From Candidatus Omnitrophota bacterium (GTDB lineage: Bacteria > Omnitrophota > Gorgyraeia > 2-01-FULL-45-10 > JBDRSA01): a stretch of DNA of 21,947 bases. Where the stretch lies: NCBI GenBank assembly GCA_043825275.1, contig JBDRSA010000060.1, positions 1 to 21,947 on the forward strand. Reading direction: 5' to 3'. Made by a program: the position numbers and the translations under genes. Positions within the stretch are counted from its first letter, which is position 1. Every line of letters begins with the position of its first letter. Positions 3,862 to 20,414 of the stretch are shown one piece after another. The notes beneath the pieces were generated by a model that saw only the letters and a list, made by a program, of their open reading frames with translations, had not been told where the DNA came from and searched no databases.

Positions 3862-4089
3862 GTTCATAGTACAAAGTTCATAGTTTGAATTGCGGTTTAC
3901 GGTGTACGGTTAATGGTTTACGGCTAAAAGATCGAAAAAAGAAGCCGATTAGTTCATAGAAAATCAACGTTGAAATCGCGCACATTGCGCTACCGATCGT
4001 TTTTTAGTTTTTATCTCTTTACCGTTCACCGTACACCGTTAACCATAAACCGTGTTAGACTTTGAACTATTGACTATGAACTATGAACT
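3862..4089. repeat. Intergenic nested inverted-repeat element, copy A (7-nt-period arms)
   Basis: Left outer GTTCATA-GTACAAA-GTTCATA-GTTTGAA (3862-3889); left inner CGGTTTA-CGGTGTA-CGGTTAA-TGGTTTA-CGGCTAA (3893-3927); right inner TTTACCG-TTCACCG-TACACCG-TTAACCA-TAAACCG (4018-4052); right outer TTAGACT-TTGAACT-ATTGACT-ATGAACT-ATGAACT (4055-4089). Homologous to 20112-20393. Confidence 0.9.
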
Positions 4090-4128
4090 GCATGGAATTA
4101 CGCGTTTAATACGGCGAACGGAGTTGAG

Positions 4129-6243: not shown

Positions 6244-8089
6244 GATTCGGACTTTAAAGGATTTAGAATTTCTAGCTAAAAAAACTCGGGACTTAAGCAA
6301 AAAAAAGGCGATGACGGTCATTCTGTCGTCGGGGACGTGCGGTCAGGCGTGCGGGTCGTTGCATGTCGCTGATAAGCTTCGAAAAGAGATCGCGAGAAAA
6401 AAGCTAGAGAAAAAAGTAAATGTACGGATAACGGGATGCCACGGATTCTGTGAGCAGGAACCGTTGATGGTTGTTGAGCCTGAAAATATCTTTTATTGTC
6501 ACGTCAAACCCGATGATATTTTGGAAATTGTGTCTGAGACACTTCAGCGGGGGAGGGTAGTTGATAGGTTGCTCTATGTTGACCCGACAATAGGTAAGAA
6601 AATAGAAAAGGAAAAAGATATCCCGTTCTATAAAGCCCAGGAAAGGATCGTCCTCGGACAGAATAAACTTGTCGATCCGTGTAATATCCATGACTACGTT
6701 GAGAACGGTGGATATTCGGCATTTATAAAAGCCTTGAATTCAATGAAACCGGAAGAGGTTATCGAAGAAGTTAAGAAGTCGGGGCTCCGAGGCAGGGGCG
6801 GCGGCGGATTTCTTACCGGGAAGAAGTGGGAGCATTGCCGCAAAGCGGAAGGGGAGCCTAAATATGTCATCTGTAACGCGGATGAAGGAGATCCGGGGGC
6901 GTATATGGACAGGAGTGTGCTGGAGGGCAATCCTCACGAGGTTATCGAGGGGATGCTCATCGGCGCGTTCGCGATCGGCGCCCGCCACGGCTACATCTAT
7001 GTCAGGAACGAGTATCCGCTCGCGGTCCAGCACGCTAAATTTGCCGTGCAGCAGGCGGAAGAGCTGGGGCTTATCGGCGATGATATCCTCGGAAGCGGTT
7101 TCTCGTTCGATATCAGGATCGCGCGCGGCGGCGGCGCGTTTGTATGCGGTGAGTCGACCGCGTTGATGGCATCGCTTGAAGGAAAAGTTGGCGAACCGCG
7201 CGCGAAAGATGTCCATACGACCGACAAGGGGTTGCACGACCTTCCCACAAACCTGAATAATGTCGAAACGTGGGCGAATGTGCCGTTGATCATCAAAAAC
7301 GGCGCGAAGTGGTTTTCGTCGAAGGGGACCAAACAGAGTAAGGGCACCAAGATATTCGCCCTGACCGGGCAGATACGTAACACGGGCCTCGTTGAGATTC
7401 CTATGGGGATGAGTTTACGTAAAATTATCTATAAAATTGGCGGCGGTCCGGCAGTAGGAAGGAAGATAAAGGCGGTTCAGACAGGGGGGCCGTCAGGAGG
7501 ATGCCTGCCGGAACGCTTATTTGATCTGCCGGTCGACTTCGAGGCCCTGGACAAGGCGGGTTCGATGGTCGGCTCCGGCGGGATGGTCGTTATGGATGAG
7601 TCGACCTGTATGGTCGACGTCGCGAAGTATTTTCTGAAGTTTCTCATTGACGAGTCGTGCGGTAAATGTGTTCCGTGCAGGGTCGGACTCAGCCGCATGC
7701 TGGAGATCATCACCGACATCACCGAAGGAAGGGGCACGGAAGAGAAATTGGCGCTCCTCGAAGAGACGGCGCGTACCGTGTCGCTTGGTTCGCTCTGCGC
7801 GCTGGGGAAAACCGCCCCGAATCCCGTTCTTTCTACGATAAAGTACTTCAGGACGGAATACGAGTCGCATATCGCCAAAAAGAAATGTACCGCCGGCGTT
7901 TGCAGAGAGCTGATCAGCTACGCGATCGACGCGAAAAAGTGTACCGGGTGCGGCGTATGTCTGCGCGGCTGTCCGCATGGCGCCATTTCCGGGAAGGCGA
8001 AATCGGCGCATTCTATAGACAGAACGCGATGCAGCAAATGCGGCATTTGCAAAGAACAGTGCAGGTTTAACGCTATCGACGTGTTGTAA
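6236..8089 (+). CDS. NuoF/HydB/HndC-like flavoprotein subunit with N-terminal [2Fe-2S] and C-terminal 2x[4Fe-4S] domains
   Basis: 617 aa. N-terminal SGTCGQACGS...GCHGFCEQEP; core SGLRGRGGGGFLTGKKWEHC, CNADEGDPGAYMDR, GAFVCGESTALMASLEG, ESCGKCVPCRVG; C-terminal CTGCGVCLRGCP and CSKCGICKEQC. Overlaps the upstream gene by 8 nt. Confidence 0.94.
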   Translation: MVKIRTLKDLEFLAKKTRDLSKKKAMTVILSSGTCGQACGSLHVADKLRKEIARKKLEKKVNVRITGCHGFCEQEPLMVVEPENIFYCHVKPDDILEIVSETLQRGRVVDRLLYVDPTIGKKIEKEKDIPFYKAQERIVLGQNKLVDPCNIHDYVENGGYSAFIKALNSMKPEEVIEEVKKSGLRGRGGGGFLTGKKWEHCRKAEGEPKYVICNADEGDPGAYMDRSVLEGNPHEVIEGMLIGAFAIGARHGYIYVRNEYPLAVQHAKFAVQQAEELGLIGDDILGSGFSFDIRIARGGGAFVCGESTALMASLEGKVGEPRAKDVHTTDKGLHDLPTNLNNVETWANVPLIIKNGAKWFSSKGTKQSKGTKIFALTGQIRNTGLVEIPMGMSLRKIIYKIGGGPAVGRKIKAVQTGGPSGGCLPERLFDLPVDFEALDKAGSMVGSGGMVVMDESTCMVDVAKYFLKFLIDESCGKCVPCRVGLSRMLEIITDITEGRGTEEKLALLEETARTVSLGSLCALGKTAPNPVLSTIKYFRTEYESHIAKKKCTAGVCRELISYAIDAKKCTGCGVCLRGCPHGAISGKAKSAHSIDRTRCSKCGICKEQCRFNAIDVL

Positions 8090-8187
8090 AAGTGGAGGGA
8101 TGATAGCGTATTAAATACAGTATTGGCCGGGCAATGGAGCCCGACGAGAGTGGTCAAGAAGACTAAGAAGTCGAAATGGAGGCGATG

Positions 8188-8883
8188 ATGCCTGCGTATG
8201 TAACGCTTACAATCGATGGAGCATTCGTGCGGGTACCGCGTAGTACCTCAGTGCTGGATGCGGCCTTAACAAGCGGGATCTGTATACCGCATCTGTGTCA
8301 TATGAATGGCGTTACCCCGATCGGCGCGTGCCGGATCTGTATCGTTGAATTGGTCAAGAACGGCAGATCAAAAGTTACCGCGTCGTGTACGCTCGAAGCT
8401 GAAGAAGGTATGGTTATTCTTGCCCATTCGAAAAAGATACTGCGGGCGCGGAAAAACATCGCGGAAATGCTCGTTGCTGAAGCTCCGAATTCGCGCGCAA
8501 TTCAGGACATCGCTGTCCGATGCGGCGTCAAAGAGGTGCGATATCCTTTTCGCAGGAATGATTGCGTTTTGTGCGGTAGGTGTGTGCGCGCCTGCGATGA
8601 GATATGGCGGTCTAAGTCACTGGGTTTTGTCGGCCGCGGGCCGGAGCGCCATGTCGCGCTGCCGTTCGATAAACGGCCGGAATATTGTAAGCGATGCAAC
8701 GCCTGTATCGATGTGTGTCCGATGACGATCACGCCGTGCTCCGGACCCATGAAGCCGGGCGAAGAGGCCCTGTGCGGGATGTGCGAGTCACAGTTATCGA
8801 TGGCTGAAAAGATCGAAGACACCTGTGTCGATTGCAGACTGGGAGACGGGTTCCATTGCGCGAGAAAAAGTTCTTACAGTTAA
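8188..8883 (+). CDS. NuoG-N-terminus / HoxU / HydA-N-terminus-like Fe-S subunit, no catalytic domain
   Basis: ORF opens at 8176, but GGAGG at 8178-8182 favours the ATG at 8188. Plant-type 2Fe-2S motif (CIPHLCHMNGVTPIGACRIC...C), ferredoxin-like CVLCGRCVRAC and CKRCNACIDVCP, and extra C-terminal cysteines (CGMC...CVDC...C). Confidence 0.85.
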   Translation: MPAYVTLTIDGAFVRVPRSTSVLDAALTSGICIPHLCHMNGVTPIGACRICIVELVKNGRSKVTASCTLEAEEGMVILAHSKKILRARKNIAEMLVAEAPNSRAIQDIAVRCGVKEVRYPFRRNDCVLCGRCVRACDEIWRSKSLGFVGRGPERHVALPFDKRPEYCKRCNACIDVCPMTITPCSGPMKPGEEALCGMCESQLSMAEKIEDTCVDCRLGDGFHCARKSSYS

Positions 8884-8909
8884 CGGCATGATGAGACAAG
8901 GAGAAGAAC

Positions 8910-10502
8910 ATGAATCTGCAGCAACCGAACGCAAATGATGTAACACAGACGGCGAACAGGTCGCGGAATGTCGTCCCTACCTCAGGGCTCTGTACGCGAT
9001 GTATCGACGGATGCCGCGGCAATTGCGAAGTATTCAAAGCAAGCTTTCGCGGCCGCGAAGTGATCTATCCCGGCCCATTCGGGGAAATTACGGCAGGAGG
9101 CGACAAGAATTACCCGATCGATTATTCGCATCTCAATATTCAGGGATATGCCATGGGGGCGAAAGGTTTGCCGAAAGGGGTTGAAGGTAATCCCGATACC
9201 GCGATATTTCCGGCGGTAGATACCGAGACCGAATACGGCTGGGATGAGAAGGTGAAGTTGAGGATCCCCGCGTTTACGGGAGCGCTCGGGTCGACCGAGA
9301 TCGCGAGGAAGAACTGGGAGCACTTCGCGATCGGAGCGGCTATTTCCGGAGTTACCCTTGTTTGCGGTGAAAATGTCTGCGGTATCGATCCAAAACTGGA
9401 GCTCGACAAACATGGCAAGATCAAGAAGGCCCCGGACATGGACCGCAGGATCGAGACGTACCGGCGATTCCACGAGGGCTACGGCGAAATCCTTGTCCAG
9501 ATGAACGTCGAAGATACCCGTCTCGGCGTCGCTGAATACGTCAGCAAGAAGCACAAGCTTGAAACTATAGAGCTGAAGTGGGGGCAGGGCGCGAAGTGTA
9601 TCGGCGGAGAGATCAAAGTCGAGAGCCTCGACCGCGCGCTTGAGCTGAAGAAGAGAGGCTATATCGTTACGCCGGATCCGTCCGTAAAATCGGTTCAGAA
9701 AGCGTATAAGCATGGCGCGATCAGGGAGTTCGAGCGTCATTCACGTCTCGGGTTCGTTACCGAAGAGGCATTTTTTGCGGAGATCAAACGGCTTAGAGAC
9801 ATCGGATTCAAACGTATTACGCTGAAGACCGGCGCCTATCCGATGCGTGAGCTTGCCATGGCGATCAAGTATAGTTCTTTGGCCAAGATAGATCTTTTAA
9901 CCATAGACGGCGCGCCGGGCGGAACGGGGATGAGCCCCTGGCGGATGATGGAAGAGTGGGGCGTGCCTACCTTCTATCTGCAGTCGATGACGCATGAGAT
10001 ATGTGAGCGGCTCGCGAGAAAGGGCATGCGCATTCCCGATATCGCCATAGCCGGCGGCTTCTCAACAGAAGATCACCTATTCAAAGTGCTGTCGATGGGA
10101 GCGCCGTACGTGAAAGCGGTCTGTATGGGAAGGGCCTTTATGATCCCGGGCATGGTCGGTAAGAATATCGGCTACTGGATCGAAAGCAAAGATCTTCCGC
10201 AGACGGTTTCCCGTTTCGGGAAGACGCCGAATGAGATATTTGTCTGCTATGACGAGCTTGCCGAGAAGTACGGGAAGGACATAAAAAATATTCCGCTCGG
10301 GGCCTTGGGAATCTACAGTTTTTCCCAGAAGCTCAAGGTTGGCCTGCAGCAGCTTATGGCCGGCAGCAGGAATTTCAGGCTCAGCACCATTACCAGGAAT
10401 GATGTGATGGCGCTCACCGAAGAAGCAGCGAGAGTATCGGGGATCCCCTTTATTATGGATGCTTTTCGCAAGGAGATGGAGGAGATCGTCGAGGCAAGGT
10501 AA
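8910..10502 (+). CDS. FMN-binding glutamate-synthase-domain (GltS central domain-like) protein
   Basis: 530 aa, good SD (AAGGAGA). LELKWGQGAKCIGGEIK, LTIDGAPGGTGMSPWRM and IAGGFSTEDHLFKVLSMGAPYVKAVCMGRAFM match the glutamate synthase FMN/TIM-barrel domain. Extra N-terminal CTRCIDGCRGNC. Confidence 0.87.
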   Translation: MNLQQPNANDVTQTANRSRNVVPTSGLCTRCIDGCRGNCEVFKASFRGREVIYPGPFGEITAGGDKNYPIDYSHLNIQGYAMGAKGLPKGVEGNPDTAIFPAVDTETEYGWDEKVKLRIPAFTGALGSTEIARKNWEHFAIGAAISGVTLVCGENVCGIDPKLELDKHGKIKKAPDMDRRIETYRRFHEGYGEILVQMNVEDTRLGVAEYVSKKHKLETIELKWGQGAKCIGGEIKVESLDRALELKKRGYIVTPDPSVKSVQKAYKHGAIREFERHSRLGFVTEEAFFAEIKRLRDIGFKRITLKTGAYPMRELAMAIKYSSLAKIDLLTIDGAPGGTGMSPWRMMEEWGVPTFYLQSMTHEICERLARKGMRIPDIAIAGGFSTEDHLFKVLSMGAPYVKAVCMGRAFMIPGMVGKNIGYWIESKDLPQTVSRFGKTPNEIFVCYDELAEKYGKDIKNIPLGALGIYSFSQKLKVGLQQLMAGSRNFRLSTITRNDVMALTEEAARVSGIPFIMDAFRKEMEEIVEAR

Positions 10503-10675: not shown

Positions 10676-11779
10676 ATGAATAAGACAAAAAAGGCAAAAA
10701 TAGTCTTCGAAGACGGAAGGACTTTTGCGGGGAGTTCTTTCGGCGCCGGGGGAACCACCTTCGGCGAAGCTGTCTTCAATACCAGCATGTCAGGCTATCA
10801 GGAGATCCTTACCGACCCTTCCTACAAAGGACAGATCGTCGCCATGACCTACCCGCTTATCGGAAATTATGGGGTCAACTCCGAGGACGTAGAGTCGAGA
10901 AGACCGTTTGTTGAGGGTTTTGTCGTAAAAGAGAGAAGCCGCATCGCCAGCAGCTGGCGGAGCGAGCGGACTCTCGATGAGTATCTTGAGGAGAATGGTA
11001 TTATCGGCATCGAAGGGATCGATACGCGGGCGCTCACCCGGCACATCCGTCTTAAGGGCGCCATGAAAGCGGTCATATCAACCGATGATCTTGATGAGAG
11101 AAGACTAAGAAAAGCCGCGAAGAATTCCCGCGGCCTTACCGGGATAGACCTTGTGAAAGAGGTGCGATACGAAAAGATCACGCGCTGGAATAAGAAGGGA
11201 AAATATACGATCGCTGTTCTCGACTGCGGCGTTAAATTCAATATTCTCAGACGGCTTGATGAAATCGGCTGTAAAGTTGTCGTGGTTCCTTCTGACGCGG
11301 ATGCGGCTACGATACTGGATGAAAAACCGGACGGGATCCTGCTTTCGAACGGGCCCGGCGATCCGGCCGGCGTTCCGTATATTGTCGATACCGTCCGGAA
11401 CCTTATCGGGAAAGTACCGATATTCGGCATCTGCTTCGGACATCAGATGCTGGGGCTTGCTCTCGGCGGAAAGACCTACAAGTTAAAGTTCGGCCACCAC
11501 GGCGGGAACCACCCGGTAAAGGACCTGAAGACCGGCCGCGTCGCTATCACCGTCCAGAATCACAGTTTCTGCGTCGATGTCGACACGCTCAAAAAGAGCG
11601 ATATTGAGATCACCCACATCAACCTGAACGACAATACCCTTGAAGGTATGAGGCACAAAAAGCTCCCGATCTTCTCGGTCCAGTTCCATCCGGAATACGG
11701 CCCCGGCCCGCGGGACGCGGTGTATTTGTTCGGCGAGTTCGTAGATATGGTGAAGAAGCATGCGAAGAAGGGTCGATAA
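10676..11779 (+). CDS. carA: Carbamoyl-phosphate synthase small (glutaminase) subunit
   Basis: 367 aa. Class I GATase with GICFGHQMLGLALGGKTYKLKFGHHGGNHP and FSVQFHPEYGPGP; N-terminal CarA domain FNTSMSGYQEILTDPSYKGQIVAMTYPLIGNYG. Confidence 0.97.
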   Translation: MNKTKKAKIVFEDGRTFAGSSFGAGGTTFGEAVFNTSMSGYQEILTDPSYKGQIVAMTYPLIGNYGVNSEDVESRRPFVEGFVVKERSRIASSWRSERTLDEYLEENGIIGIEGIDTRALTRHIRLKGAMKAVISTDDLDERRLRKAAKNSRGLTGIDLVKEVRYEKITRWNKKGKYTIAVLDCGVKFNILRRLDEIGCKVVVVPSDADAATILDEKPDGILLSNGPGDPAGVPYIVDTVRNLIGKVPIFGICFGHQMLGLALGGKTYKLKFGHHGGNHPVKDLKTGRVAITVQNHSFCVDVDTLKKSDIEITHINLNDNTLEGMRHKKLPIFSVQFHPEYGPGPRDAVYLFGEFVDMVKKHAKKGR

Positions 11780-11788
11780 AAGGAAAGC

Positions 11789-11976
11789 CTGTCATTGCGA
11801 GTCCCGCGAAGCGGGGCGAAGCAATCTCCCGAACGAAGCGAGGGGGTCTTTTAGTAATTCTGACAGAGATTGCTTCGTCGCGGAGCTAAGTAAAAGTGGG
11901 GCGCTTCTCGCAATGACGAAGAGGGAAATAACTTCGTCGCGGAGCTAAGTAAAAGTGGGGCGCTCCTCGCAATGAC
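11789..11976. repeat. Dispersed palindromic repeat of the TCATTGCGAG...CTCGCAATGA type with internal duplication
   Basis: 5' arm TGTCATTGCGAG...GCGAAGCAATCTC; complementary 3' arm GAGATTGCTTCG...CTCGCAATGAC. A 45-nt segment is repeated at 11873-11917 and 11932-11976 with one mismatch. Confidence 0.88.
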
Positions 11977-11992
11977 AAATAAGAGCTAAAAA

Positions 11993-13474
11993 ATGCCAAA
12001 AAGAACTGATATAAAAAAGATACTGATCATCGGCTCCGGGCCGATCGTGATAAGCCAGGCCTGCGAGTTCGACTATTCCGGCACCCAGGCCTGCAAAGCG
12101 CTCCGTGAAGACGGGTACAAAGTAGCCCTTATTAATTCAAATCCCGCTACGATCATGACCGACCCCGATATGGCGGATGCGACGTATATTGAGCCGATAA
12201 CGCCGGAAGTCGTCGAGAAGATCATCGAGAAAGAACGGCCCGACGCGATCCTGCCGACGCTTGGCGGGCAGACCGGGCTCAATACGGCCATGAAGATCTG
12301 CGAAATGGGCGTTCTCAAGAAGTACAACGTGAAGATGATCGGCGCGAATTATAATGTTATCAGGAAAGCCGAAAACAGGAACGATTTCAAAAAGGCGATG
12401 CTGAAGATCGGCCTCGACCTGCCGAAGAGCATGCTCGCGCATAGCATGAACGGCGCGCGGAAAGCTCTTAAAAAGATAGGCCTTCCGGTCATTATCCGGC
12501 CGAGTTTTACGCTCGGGGGCACCGGCGGCGGGATCGCGACGACGAAAGAAGAGTTCGAGTATATCGTTGCCCTGGGGCTCAAAAACAGTATGACCAGCGA
12601 GGTCCTGATCGAGGAGTCGATCGTCGGGTGGAAAGAGTACGAGCTCGAAGTGATGCGCGACATAAAAGACAACGTCGTTATTGTCTGTTCGATCGAGAAT
12701 CTCGATCCGATGGGGATCCACACGGGGGACTCGATCACGGTCGCGCCGCAGCAGACCCTGACCGACCGTGAGTATCAGACGATGCGCGACGCGGCGATCG
12801 CGATCATGCGTGAGATCGGCGTCGCGACGGGCGGGTCGAACGTACAGTTCGCCGTGAATCCCAAAAACGGAAGGATGGTCGTTATCGAGATGAATCCGCG
12901 CGTATCGAGGAGCTCCGCGCTCGCCAGTAAAGCGACCGGGTTTCCGATCGCGAAGTTCGCGGCGAAGCTTGCCGTCGGTTATACGCTCGATGAGATACAG
13001 AACGACATAACGAAAGAGACGCCGGCTTCGTTCGAGCCGACGATTGATTACTGCGTCGTGAAGATCCCGAGATTTACGTTCGAGAAGTTTCCCGAAGCGA
13101 AGGATATCCTCGGTATTTCCATGAAATCGGTCGGAGAAACGATGGCGATCGGCAGGACGTTCAAGGAAGCGATCCAGAAAGGATTACGCGGTTTAGAGAT
13201 CGGCCATGTCGGGCTCGACAACAAGAAATCGTTCAGGAAGATACCGGACAGCAAGATGTACAAGCGCCTGAAAGAGCCGAACGCGTCGAGAATATTCTAC
13301 GTAAAATACGCCCTTCAGAGGGGGATGAGCGTCAGGAAGCTCGCGGATATTACCGGTATCGACCCCTGGTTCATTCACAACATTAAAGAGATCGTCGATC
13401 TGGAGAAAAAGATAAAACAGGTTGCCAGTTGCCAGTTGCCAGAAAACAGAGAAAAAAATTCCCGCTGCCGATAG
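11993..13474 (+). CDS. carB: Carbamoyl-phosphate synthase large subunit copy 1, N-terminal half (frame disrupted)
   Basis: 493 aa. [81 protein letters not shown]. Coding similarity to CarB ends at EKKIKQ (13420), followed by 17 novel codons and a stop. Confidence 0.9.
13421..13449. repeat. 29-nt insertion with 3x GTTGCCA tandem heptamers inside carB1
   Basis: AAAACAG | GTTGCCA GTTGCCA GTTGCCA GAAAACAG | AG... The direct repeat AAAACAG occurs at 13414-13420 and 13443-13449. Excision restores frame and expected CarB length. Confidence 0.9.
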
Positions 13475-15231
13475 ACCTTCTAAAAAAGGCGAAGGAATTT
13501 GGGTTCAGTGACTGCCAGATAGCGGAGCTCATTGGTTCAGACGAGCTTGCTGTTCGCGGAGGTCGAAAAAAACTGGGTGTCCAGGCGACCTTTAAACTGG
13601 TCGATACCTGCGCGGCCGAGTTTGAGGCGTATACGCCGTATTACTATTCGACGTATGAATCCGAAGACGAATCGCGCCCTTCGAAAAAGAAGAAGATCAT
13701 GATATTGGGCGGCGGGCCGAACAGGATCGGACAGGGGATCGAGTTTGACTATTGCTGCTGCCACGCTTCGTTCGCGCTGAAAGAGCTTGGTTATGAGACA
13801 ATCATGGTGAACTCAAATCCCGAGACCGTATCGACCGATTACGACACTTCCGACAAGCTCTATTTTGAGCCGCTTACATTTGAAGACGTGATGAACATTG
13901 TCGACAGAGAAAGGCCGGATGGGGTAATAGTCCAATTCGGCGGGCAGACGCCTTTGAATCTCGCTAAAAAACTCCTTGACGCGGGTGTCCCCATAATCGG
14001 CACCTCGGTCAGATCTATCGATAACGCTGAAGACAGGGACAAGTTCGCGAAGCTTATCAGAAAGCTGAAGATCGACCAGCCGCCAAACGGCTCCGCGACC
14101 TCAGGAGAGGAAGCGCTGAAGATCGCGCGGCGGATCGGATACCCGATCCTGGTGCGGCCGTCATATGTGCTCGGCGGAAGGTCCATGAGGATCGTTTATA
14201 ACGATTCGTCGCTGAAAACTTTTATTAAAGAGGCCGCGGATACTTCACGGGAGCTTCCGATCCTGATAGACAAATTCCTTGAGGATGCCGTTGAGGTCGA
14301 CGTCGACGCGATTTCAGACGGAACGATGACCGTTATCGGCGGTATCATGGAGCACATTGAGGAAGCCGGGGTTCATTCCGGCGACTCGGCATGCGTGCTT
14401 CCGCCGCATACGCTGAGCGATGAGATCATCAATACGATACGGGATCATACGATCGCGATCTCAAAAGAGCTTAAAGTCGTCGGCCTTTTGAACATTCAGT
14501 TCGCGGTTAAAAACGATGTGGTATTTGTCCTCGAGGTAAACCCGAGGGCGTCGAGAACCGTGCCGTTCGTCAGCAAAACGATCGGTGTCCCGCTCGCGAA
14601 ACTCGCGGCAAAGGTTATGACGGGAAAGACCCTGCGTGAACTCGGATTCACCAAAGAAAAGCATATTGAACATATTTCGGTAAAGGAATCGGTGCTTCCG
14701 TTCTCAAGGTTTTCAGGAGTCGATATACTGCTCGGGCCTGAGATGAAGTCGACCGGCGAGGTCATGGGTATCGATACTTCGTTCGGCGTGGCCTTCTATA
14801 AAGCGCAGGCCGCGGCTGGACACGTCCTTCCGAAAAGCGGCAAAGTTTTTATCAGCGTCAAGAATGACGATAAGCGCGACGTGGTCTTTCTCGCGAAGAG
14901 ATTATGCGACATCGGATTTGAGATCCTCGCGACAAAAGGGACCGCCAAGGTTTTCAGGTCAAATGCCATAAAAGCAAAAACGCTCGGGAAGATCGGTGAG
15001 GGGCACACCGAACTGCTGGACCTTATCAAAAAGGGTGAGATACATCTTATTATTAATACTCCATCGGGCCAGCGGGGGCAGTCTGACATGAAGCCGATCC
15101 GCAGCCTTGCGGTCCTGCAGGGGATACCGTGCATAACGACGATCCAGGGAGCTCAGGCGACGGTAAACGGCATTGATTCAATAGCGAAAAAAGAACTTAC
15201 GGTCCGATCGATCCAGGAGTATCTTTCTTGA
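13429..15231 (+). CDS. carB: Carbamoyl-phosphate synthase large subunit copy 1, C-terminal half (offset -1 relative to the N-half)
   Basis: 600 aa. [91 protein letters not shown], complete C-terminal MGS-like allosteric domain. TTG at 13429 is only a nominal start. True CarB similarity starts near 13450. Confidence 0.88.
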
Positions 15232-15353: not shown

Positions 15354-18565
<3,212 letters not shown>

Positions 18566-18581
<16 letters not shown>

Positions 18582-20107: not shown

Positions 20108-20111
20108 AACA

Positions 20112-20393
20112 GTTCATAGTTCAAAGAGGATGTCCCGCAGGCGAACCATGGACTTTGAACTGATCAGATTACCAGTAGTTGTAAGAATGAAATTACGGTT
20201 TACGGTGCACGGTTAACGGTTTACGGTTAAGATCGAAAAAACAACCGATTAATCCGAAGAAGATCAGCATTGAAATTTGCATATTGCGTTATTGATCATT
20301 TTCAGCTCTTTTTTACCGTTCACCGTACACCGTTAACCGTAAACCGTCTCTGTTCTCCGAACTATGAACTATGTACTATGAACTTTGAACTAA
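20112..20393. repeat. Intergenic nested inverted-repeat element, copy B (7-nt-period arms)
   Basis: Outer left GTTCATAGTTCAAAG (20112-20126); inner left CGGTTTA-CGGTGCA-CGGTTAA-CGGTTTA-CGGTTAA (20196-20230); inner right TTTACCG-TTCACCG-TACACCG-TTAACCG-TAAACCG (20312-20346); outer right GAACTAT-GAACTAT-GTACTAT-GAACTTT-GAACTAA (20359-20393). Confidence 0.9.
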
Positions 20394-20414
20394 ATGGGAG
20401 TTAAGTAGCCAACC

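Follow-up and report, generated by a model that had tools for sequence, protein, structure and literature searches.

One of two adjacent carB genes in a Candidatus Omnitrophota contig is split at a heptanucleotide tandem tract

The window analysed here is the whole of a 21,947-nucleotide (nt) contig from an NCBI metagenome-assembled genome (MAG) labelled Candidatus Omnitrophota. It carries two genes for the large subunit of carbamoyl-phosphate synthase (CPS): carB1, which is split into two open reading frames (ORF1 and ORF2), and the intact carB2 directly downstream. The split in carB1 falls at a tract of three tandem GTTGCCA heptamers. The best explanation, to which we give about even odds, is that slippage of a heptanucleotide recently shifted the reading frame of carB1 within a low-complexity linker of very variable length, a change that would be reversible and buffered by carB2. 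The perfection of the three heptamer copies is our reason for placing the event recently. An earlier, sequence-only reading of this DNA had listed a slippage product among several options. Slippage is the best-supported mechanism and that part of its interpretation stands, whereas its precise insertion, target-site duplication or excision footprint is not supported.

Read from the 5′ side, the junction has the order ...GAG AAA AAG ATA AAA CAG, then GTTGCCA ×3 plus G, then AAAACAG, then AG plus A7, then TTC... (Table 1). The right-hand AAAACAG is followed by AGAAAAAAATTC, with the A7 run at 13452–13458. ORF1 follows CarB as far as ...EKKIKQ and then enters a 17-residue tail, which ends at a TAG (13472–13474) and has no match to the CarB continuation of any relative. 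CarB picks up again in the −1 frame, which is open to 15231, and the two ORFs overlap out of frame by 46 nt. Stop codons are present in none of the forward frames of the heptamer tract, which Tandem Repeats Finder described as period 7 with 3.1 copies and 100% matches. It is the sole perfect tandem repeat in the contig with at least three copies of a 4–12-nt unit. The 14-mer GTTGCCAGTTGCCA, with up to two mismatches allowed, was found solely at the tract (0.1 expected in shuffles). The tract is thus unlikely to have arisen by chance. Every anatomical detail of the sequence-only reading could be confirmed from the sequence, namely the ORF1 stop at 13474, the continuation in the −1 frame, the heptamers and the AAAACAG pair, with the split exactly at the tract. 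Its further point, that this is not a simple sequencing indel, is borne out to the extent that the assembly has no general indel problem, since nine other A7, A8 or G8 runs in the contig all lie in frame inside intact ORFs.

Table 1. Positions of the carB1 junction elements and of the carA and carB genes in the window
Feature	Position	Strand	Description
Left AAAACAG	13414..13420	+	ORF1-frame codons ..A AAA CAG (K Q)
Heptamer tract (GTTGCCA)x3 + G	13421..13442	+	Copies at 13421-13441, G at 13442; 21 nt = VASCQLP in frame 0
Right AAAACAG	13443..13449	+	Frame 0: A AAC AG (within E-N-R); ORF2 frame: AAA CAG (K-Q)
A_AAA_AAT	13453..13459	+	ORF1 frame; takes in six As of A7; formal X_XXZ_ZZN -1 slippery heptamer
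carB1 ORF1	11993..13474	+	493 amino acids: CarB N-terminal 476 residues + 17-residue tail; annotation MFH1996012.1
carB1 ORF2	13429..15231	+	CarB C-terminal ~594 residues; annotated as 600 amino acids; MFH1996013.1
carB2, intact CarB paralog	15354..18581	+	1075 amino acids; NCBIfam NF003671, 1519 bits; own GAAGGAGAGG ribosome-binding site
carA, glutaminase small subunit	10676..11779	+	Directly 5' of carB1; NCBIfam TIGR01368, 506 bits; annotation MFH1996011.1

Because ORF2 is in the −1 frame, a net change of +1 or −2 nt rejoins carB1. At least four single edits achieve this, each giving one ORF without an internal stop. Deletion of 13421–13449 (29 nt) produces a continuous ORF, as the sequence-only reading had stated, with 1069 amino acids and a 33-residue linker. 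A tract of one heptamer copy gives 1074 amino acids and a 38-residue linker, a tract of four copies gives 1081 amino acids and a 45-residue linker, and a change from A7 to A8 gives 1079 amino acids and a 43-residue linker. The 29-nt segment is thus not uniquely ‘precise’, as had been proposed, since the three other edits repair carB1 equally. With A7 as sequenced, 1, 4 or 7 heptamer copies are in frame and 2, 3, 5 or 6 copies are out of frame; the three heptamers themselves amount to 21 nt and are frame-neutral.

To compare linkers, we defined the linker as the segment from DPWF to AKxxGF, which was measurable in ~100 of the 120 best full-length homologs. These homologs (78–81% identity, 1061–1122 amino acids) come mostly from Omnitrophota MAGs and all are single ORFs. 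In the ~100 intact relatives the linker is 25–69 residues long and its sequence is very poorly conserved. The linkers of all four repaired versions fall inside this range, so that linker length is unable to choose among the repairs. The sequence-only reading had relied on linker length to support the 29-nt deletion; a 33-residue linker is indeed within the range of the relatives, but the argument does not discriminate because the other three repairs fit too. In alignments to 1BXR and others, the break maps to approximately residues 476–486 of Escherichia coli CarB (...LEEKVAEVGIT-GLNADFL...), which in the E. coli structure is inside the oligomerization domain, between the two synthetase halves. 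The break site is a lysine- and glutamine-rich low-complexity surface loop that varies freely in length and sequence among relatives.

In the nearest relatives with DNA, the loci L081, L083 and L084, the linkers contain 9–12-nt direct repeats 21 nt apart (e.g. ACCAGAAAA and AGAAACCAGAAA). The repeat words are A-rich and punctuated by CAG, as around the AAAACAG of carB1. The L084 linker reads ACC AGA AAA CAG AAC AGA GAA ACC AGA AAA AAG, and that of L081 reads AAG AAC AGA AAA GAG ATA CTG AAA GAA AGA. In L083 there is a degenerate heptad array, AGAAACC AGAAACC AGAGAAC AGAAACC AGAAAAG, encoding NRNQKPE/NRNQKRK. A direct repeat of at least 7 nt within 45 nt was present in 18 of 50 intact CarB linkers (36%). 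As 7-mer repeats are this common in linkers, the AAAACAG pair may well be ordinary for low-complexity coding DNA and does not by itself point to a target-site duplication. Perfect arrays were another matter: in the loci of the seven nearest relatives (L001, L002 and L081–L085), perfect runs with a 7-nt period never reached 21 nt, and the 47 CarB linkers screened contained no array of at least three exact heptamer copies.

A rough count of CarB fragments gave no enrichment of fragment ends at the linker that would point to a recurrent natural split there. With the exception of L087, the fragments beginning or ending near the linker were cut by contig ends or by N gaps. Three partial CarB proteins were rejected as natural splits for these reasons: P0123 (180-N gap), P0305 (100-N scaffold gap) and P0231 (ends at a contig end). 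In two relatives other than L087 the assembly breaks exactly in the linker, at a 100-N scaffold gap in L088 (4883–4982) and at the contig end in L086 (5433), both of which are compatible with strain-level variation in linker length. In L087 (3815–3916), whose N-terminal half is 82% identical, the carB ORF ends at an in-frame TAA within the linker. This TAA is followed by CTAAAACAGGTTTGACTAAAACAAGCC, which shares TAAAACAGGTT with window positions 13413–13423, then by a hairpin plus T9 and by AT-rich DNA. The contig ends 89 nt later, making this stop uninterpretable; truncation of the gene, an insertion and a chimera in the contig are all conceivable.

Apart from the break, carB1 shows no decay. 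It keeps all 341 of the columns that are invariant in 72 intact CarBs, where intact relatives privately break 0.37 on average. Its mean distance to 13 outgroups is 0.3728, compared to 0.3739 ± 0.0033 for 60 intact relatives, which places it 21st of 61. No further lesions were found in carB1 and both halves are otherwise open. The kept invariant columns, the lack of rate acceleration and the lack of further lesions together rule out a decaying pseudogene. It follows that the lesion is very young, or that expression is not abolished, or that the lesion is not real.

The downstream paralog is only distantly related. With carB1-type proteins carB2 shares only 53% identity; the second carB of L082 (13159–16407), where the gene order is carA-carB-pyrG-carB, matches it at 78%. 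The ribosome-binding site of carB2 is strong. L083 also has the order carA-carB-carB (second carB at 6581–9264). In the fetched loci of the window, L082 and L083, two divergent carB genes, sharing 53% identity, thus lie beside the only carA seen in each. The presence of a second carB in L082 and L083 indicates that the two-paralog state is old and that both copies are normally kept. Presumably, carB2 makes the loss of carB1 survivable, although given the long retention of both genes such a loss is not obviously neutral. A division of labour between the two, for example between arginine and pyrimidine supply, is a possibility.

Under the slippage explanation, slipped-strand mispairing would have expanded a GTTGCCA/TTGCCAG sequence inside the carB1 coding sequence until it stood as three perfect copies in tandem. 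The likeliest history would be an in-frame ancestor with one copy that gained two more (+14 nt, equivalent to a −1 frame change); alternatively, a four-copy allele may have lost one. The outcome would be a 493-residue N-terminal product and a C-terminal remainder without a credible translation start. The break would be tolerated through the intact, old paralog directly downstream. It would also be reversible, by gain of one copy, loss of two copies, deletion between the AAAACAG repeats, or gain of one A. Heptanucleotide repeats are reported to be the most abundant class of long simple sequence repeats (SSRs) in most prokaryotic genomes, which has been attributed to polymerase slippage (PMC4679880, summarising earlier work).

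The relatives were considered as a guide to the ancestral state. L084 reads (A/G)CC AGA AAA CAG in the ORF2 frame, a hint that old coding sequence survives in both the final heptamer copy and the AAAACAG after it, favouring a one-copy ancestor. L083 reads CCA GA(G/A) AAC AGA in the ORF1 frame, favouring three copies plus A8. In L087, the CarB frame gives L-K-Q-V over AAAACAGGTT, as in frame 0 of the window (I-K-Q-V), and by eye its TGC CTT AAA AAA GAA resembles the third frame of the last heptamer in the window. We rejected the relatives' linkers as evidence of the ancestral frame, as low-complexity sequence of this kind gives K/Q/E/R/N peptides in every frame. Parsimony points to heptamer slippage, because the perfect tract is the only visibly recent event and because a one-copy ancestor is in frame with A7 and supplies the seed. 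The A8 alternative is less parsimonious, as it takes a three-copy tract arising from zero copies and then a second, unrelated mutation.

A same-species comparator was sought in several ways. Exact-protein look-ups of ORF1, carA, gltD and ORF2 found none, the best match in the genome contig collection was 80%, and two degenerate-codon DNA scans of metagenome contigs with 16-residue peptides gave 0 matches. In protein searches with the repaired CarB1, ORF1 and ORF2, the only same-species sequence was the ORF2 protein of the contig itself (protein-collection entry P0241, which is MFH1996013.1 and 100% identical to ORF2). The 90% cluster of ORF1 (P0361/P0362) has as its ‘representative’ an unrelated 46-residue Logan peptide, a clustering artefact that may explain why the ORF1-based search did not list the contig's own ORF1 protein.

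Several points weigh against slippage. The frame evidence from L083 and L084 is in conflict, and global protein and DNA alignments of the versions with the 29-nt deletion, one copy, four copies or A8 score approximately equally, differing mostly with length. To reach three copies from one, the tract must slip twice, or once by two units, and a 7-mer present as a single copy is rarely duplicated in the first place. The three-copy state could also be a minority allele or an assembly product. Finally, since 21 nt is frame-neutral, the loss of 1 nt from an ancestral A8 would be an equally simple last step.

This last point leads to an explanation that we consider unlikely, in which the three heptamers (VASCQLP) belong to the linker and are read in frame, the break being caused by the absence of one A at 13452–13458 (A8 to A7), either as a real deletion or as a base-calling or assembly error. 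A8 gives one 1079-residue ORF, 21 nt is divisible by three, and repeats spaced by 21 nt occur in the linkers of the three nearest relatives. The CCA GAG AAC AGA of L083 (P E N R) is in the same frame as CCA GAA AAC AGA in frame 0 of the window, and related peptides are found in the linkers of P0096 (NRE) and P0123 (KNRKE). Homopolymer indels are, moreover, the commonest frameshift and the commonest sequencing error. However, the nine other A7, A8 and G8 runs in the contig are in frame, and a MAG contig of 22 kb suggests an assembly from short reads, in which errors in homopolymers would be rare. With A8 the in-frame copy numbers become 0, 3 and 6, so that no in-frame single copy would have been there to seed the perfect three-copy tract, and more events, of different kinds, would be needed. 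Over the same bases, L084 (ACC AGA AAA CAG) backs the ORF2 frame.

The explanation put forward in the sequence-only reading, a 29-nt insertion comprising the 22-nt tract and a duplicated AAAACAG, appears quite improbable. The insertion would have entered ...ATA AAA CAG AGA AAA AAA TTC..., with the AAAACAG pair as the duplication or footprint of a mobile element. Removal of 13421–13449 is seamless, and identical 7-mers abut the tract on both sides; by a hand estimate from local base composition, the probability of a chance match of two specified 7-mer positions is ~0.0005–0.02. Against this, the 22 nt consist purely of direct tandem copies, as the footprint of an element would not, without inverted termini or a hairpin (single-strand DNA fold −1 kcal/mol, z +2.1), and no further copy of the tract or of the footprint is present in the contig. 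Direct repeats of this length are frequent in intact linkers, as described above, and words like AAAACAG recur in relatives that lack the insert. The in-frame outcome of the deletion had a prior of one in three and is common to three other edits. The L084 reading in the ORF2 frame suggests that the last heptamer and the second AAAACAG were coding before the tract grew, but L083 favours the ORF1 frame instead. We know of no bacterial element that leaves a 22-nt tandem-heptamer footprint.

It is very doubtful that the tract acts as a contingency switch, in which heptamer copy number would toggle carB1 between on (1, 4 or 7 copies) and off (2, 3, 5 or 6 copies) while carB2 gives basal carbamoyl phosphate. 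The length of the unit is not divisible by three and the tract is within an ORF, so that on and off copy numbers alternate; the second paralog makes an off state viable, and phase-variable heptanucleotide repeats are known in pathogens. Known switch tracts are, however, far longer than three copies, and CarB is a core biosynthetic enzyme rather than a surface or restriction function. No comparable perfect tract was present in relatives, in either the seven nearest loci or the 47 linkers, with L083 having merely a degenerate heptad array. Were there such a switch, it would be phase variation of a core enzyme of nitrogen and nucleotide metabolism, one of two anciently kept paralogs, and not of a surface structure, and the variable linker would be an evolutionary nursery for such tracts.

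We give little credence to recoding, by −1 ribosomal frameshifting at A_AAA_AAU (13453–13459) or by transcriptional slippage on A7, upstream of the TAG at 13472. A_AAA_AAT does fit X_XXZ_ZZN when read with ORF1, the −1 frame is that of ORF2, the 0-frame stop comes four codons past the heptamer, and carB1 is undecayed. There is, however, no stimulatory structure (13459–13560 folds at −31.9 kcal/mol, z −0.92, a stability reached by 33 of 200 shuffles) and no GGAGG-like Shine–Dalgarno stimulator upstream of the slippery heptamer. For transcriptional slippage to be efficient, a run of seven As is short, and AAU in the A site would re-pair poorly. Nor is the site conserved, as CarB is a single ORF in every relative examined. 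X_XXZ_ZZN is the definition of the −1 frameshift heptamer, and A_AAA_AAC and A_AAA_AAG are proven bacterial cases (PMC4066793).

A functional split, in which the two halves work as separate subunits as in Aquifex aeolicus and ORF2 is translated from a TTG in the second heptamer copy, is equally hard to credit: split CPS genes exist in A. aeolicus (PMC6022934) and both halves of carB1 are undecayed and annotated as proteins (MFH1996012.1 and MFH1996013.1), but the break lies inside the oligomerization domain, whereas Aquifex CPS.A/CPS.B are divided at the border of complete functional units, the annotated TTG start of ORF2 has only a weak AGG upstream where carB2 has GAAGGAGAGG, and no relative combines a split with an intact downstream half.

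The genes in the window are, in order, gltB, gltD, a nuoF-like gene, a hoxU-like gene, an ORF of 530 amino acids, carA, carB1 (split), carB2 (intact), guaA and purF. carB1 is the syntenic and vertically inherited ortholog of carB in relatives: the order gltB-gltD-...-carA-carB-guaA is common to L002, and the order 530-residue ORF-carA-carB is common to L001. Its ORF1 has 80–86% identity to Omnitrophota CarB. No NCBIfam model matches the 530-residue ORF (8910–10502), which separates the hoxU-like gene from carA; L001 likewise has an equally long ORF upstream of carA (429–2021). When the complete contig was scanned against Rfam, no relevant family was found.

Two sets of intergenic repeats were also observed. 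The region between carA and carB1 (11790–11979) contains palindromic units of the type GTCATTGCGAG...CGAAGCAATC, and two tandem 55-nt copies (11866–11920 and 11925–11979; 91% identical) are located directly 5′ of the carB1 start. These palindromes fold no better than shuffles (z −0.08). Separately, an element of ~230–290 nt occurs in two intergenic copies (3862–4095 and 20110–20397; 78% identical), one upstream of gltD and one upstream of purF. Each arm is an array with heptad periodicity, the two being inverted with respect to each other, [TTACGGT]n ... [ACCGTAA]n, with GTTCATA / TATGAAC arrays flanking, and the predicted RNA fold of 20180–20395 is −54 kcal/mol (z −3.5). This element has no Rfam family and was not in any of the loci fetched from relatives; a hairpin element peculiar to the lineage, with a regulatory role or mobility, is one possibility. 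Beggiatoaceae and cyanobacteria are known to carry heptamer arrays between genes (PMC4679880).

If the lesion is real, carB1 represents gene inactivation at its first step, with one slippage-type event in an otherwise perfectly conserved gene of an essential pathway, probably tolerated only because a second paralog adjoins. For annotation, MFH1996012.1 and MFH1996013.1 (“carbamoyl-phosphate synthase large subunit”) are to be taken as two parts of a single frameshifted gene. Beyond this case, the low-complexity DPWF...AKxxGF loop of CarB, 25–69 residues long in this lineage, is a hotspot prone to slippage, and indels there should not be over-interpreted. The type of event is well known and carB1 is a further instance, otherwise of little consequence unless populations show switching.

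Among known systems, carB1 can be compared first to intragenic SSR slippage at the contingency loci of Haemophilus and Neisseria, where there is likewise a perfect repeat with a non-3n unit in an ORF and copy number sets the frame. In contrast to those loci, the carB1 tract has three copies and lies in a housekeeping biosynthetic gene, and there is no sign of selection for switching, as no relative has a comparable tract. The second comparison is with a recent frameshift pseudogene of a redundant paralog, which carB1 resembles in having a single lesion in an otherwise perfectly conserved gene with an intact paralog adjoining. It differs in that both carB paralogs have long been kept (each with ~80% identity to relatives) and there is no second lesion; because of this long retention in the lineage, the loss of carB1 would not be expected to be neutral. 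Bacterial −1 sites such as those of dnaX and the A_AAA_AAG of the IS3 family share with carB1 an A_AAA_AAN in the upstream frame, a downstream ORF in the −1 frame and a close 0-frame stop. carB1 is without their stimulatory hairpin, Shine–Dalgarno element or conservation in homologs, and its heptamer, with U as the final base, is not among the A_AAA_AAG/A/C cases named in PMC4066793. In Aquifex, finally, CarB sequence also comes from two ORFs, with CPS.A and CPS.B encoded by separate genes and active as isolated subunits (PMC6022934), whereas in carB1 the break is within a domain at approximately E. coli residue 480, the ORFs overlap out of frame and the downstream start is poor.

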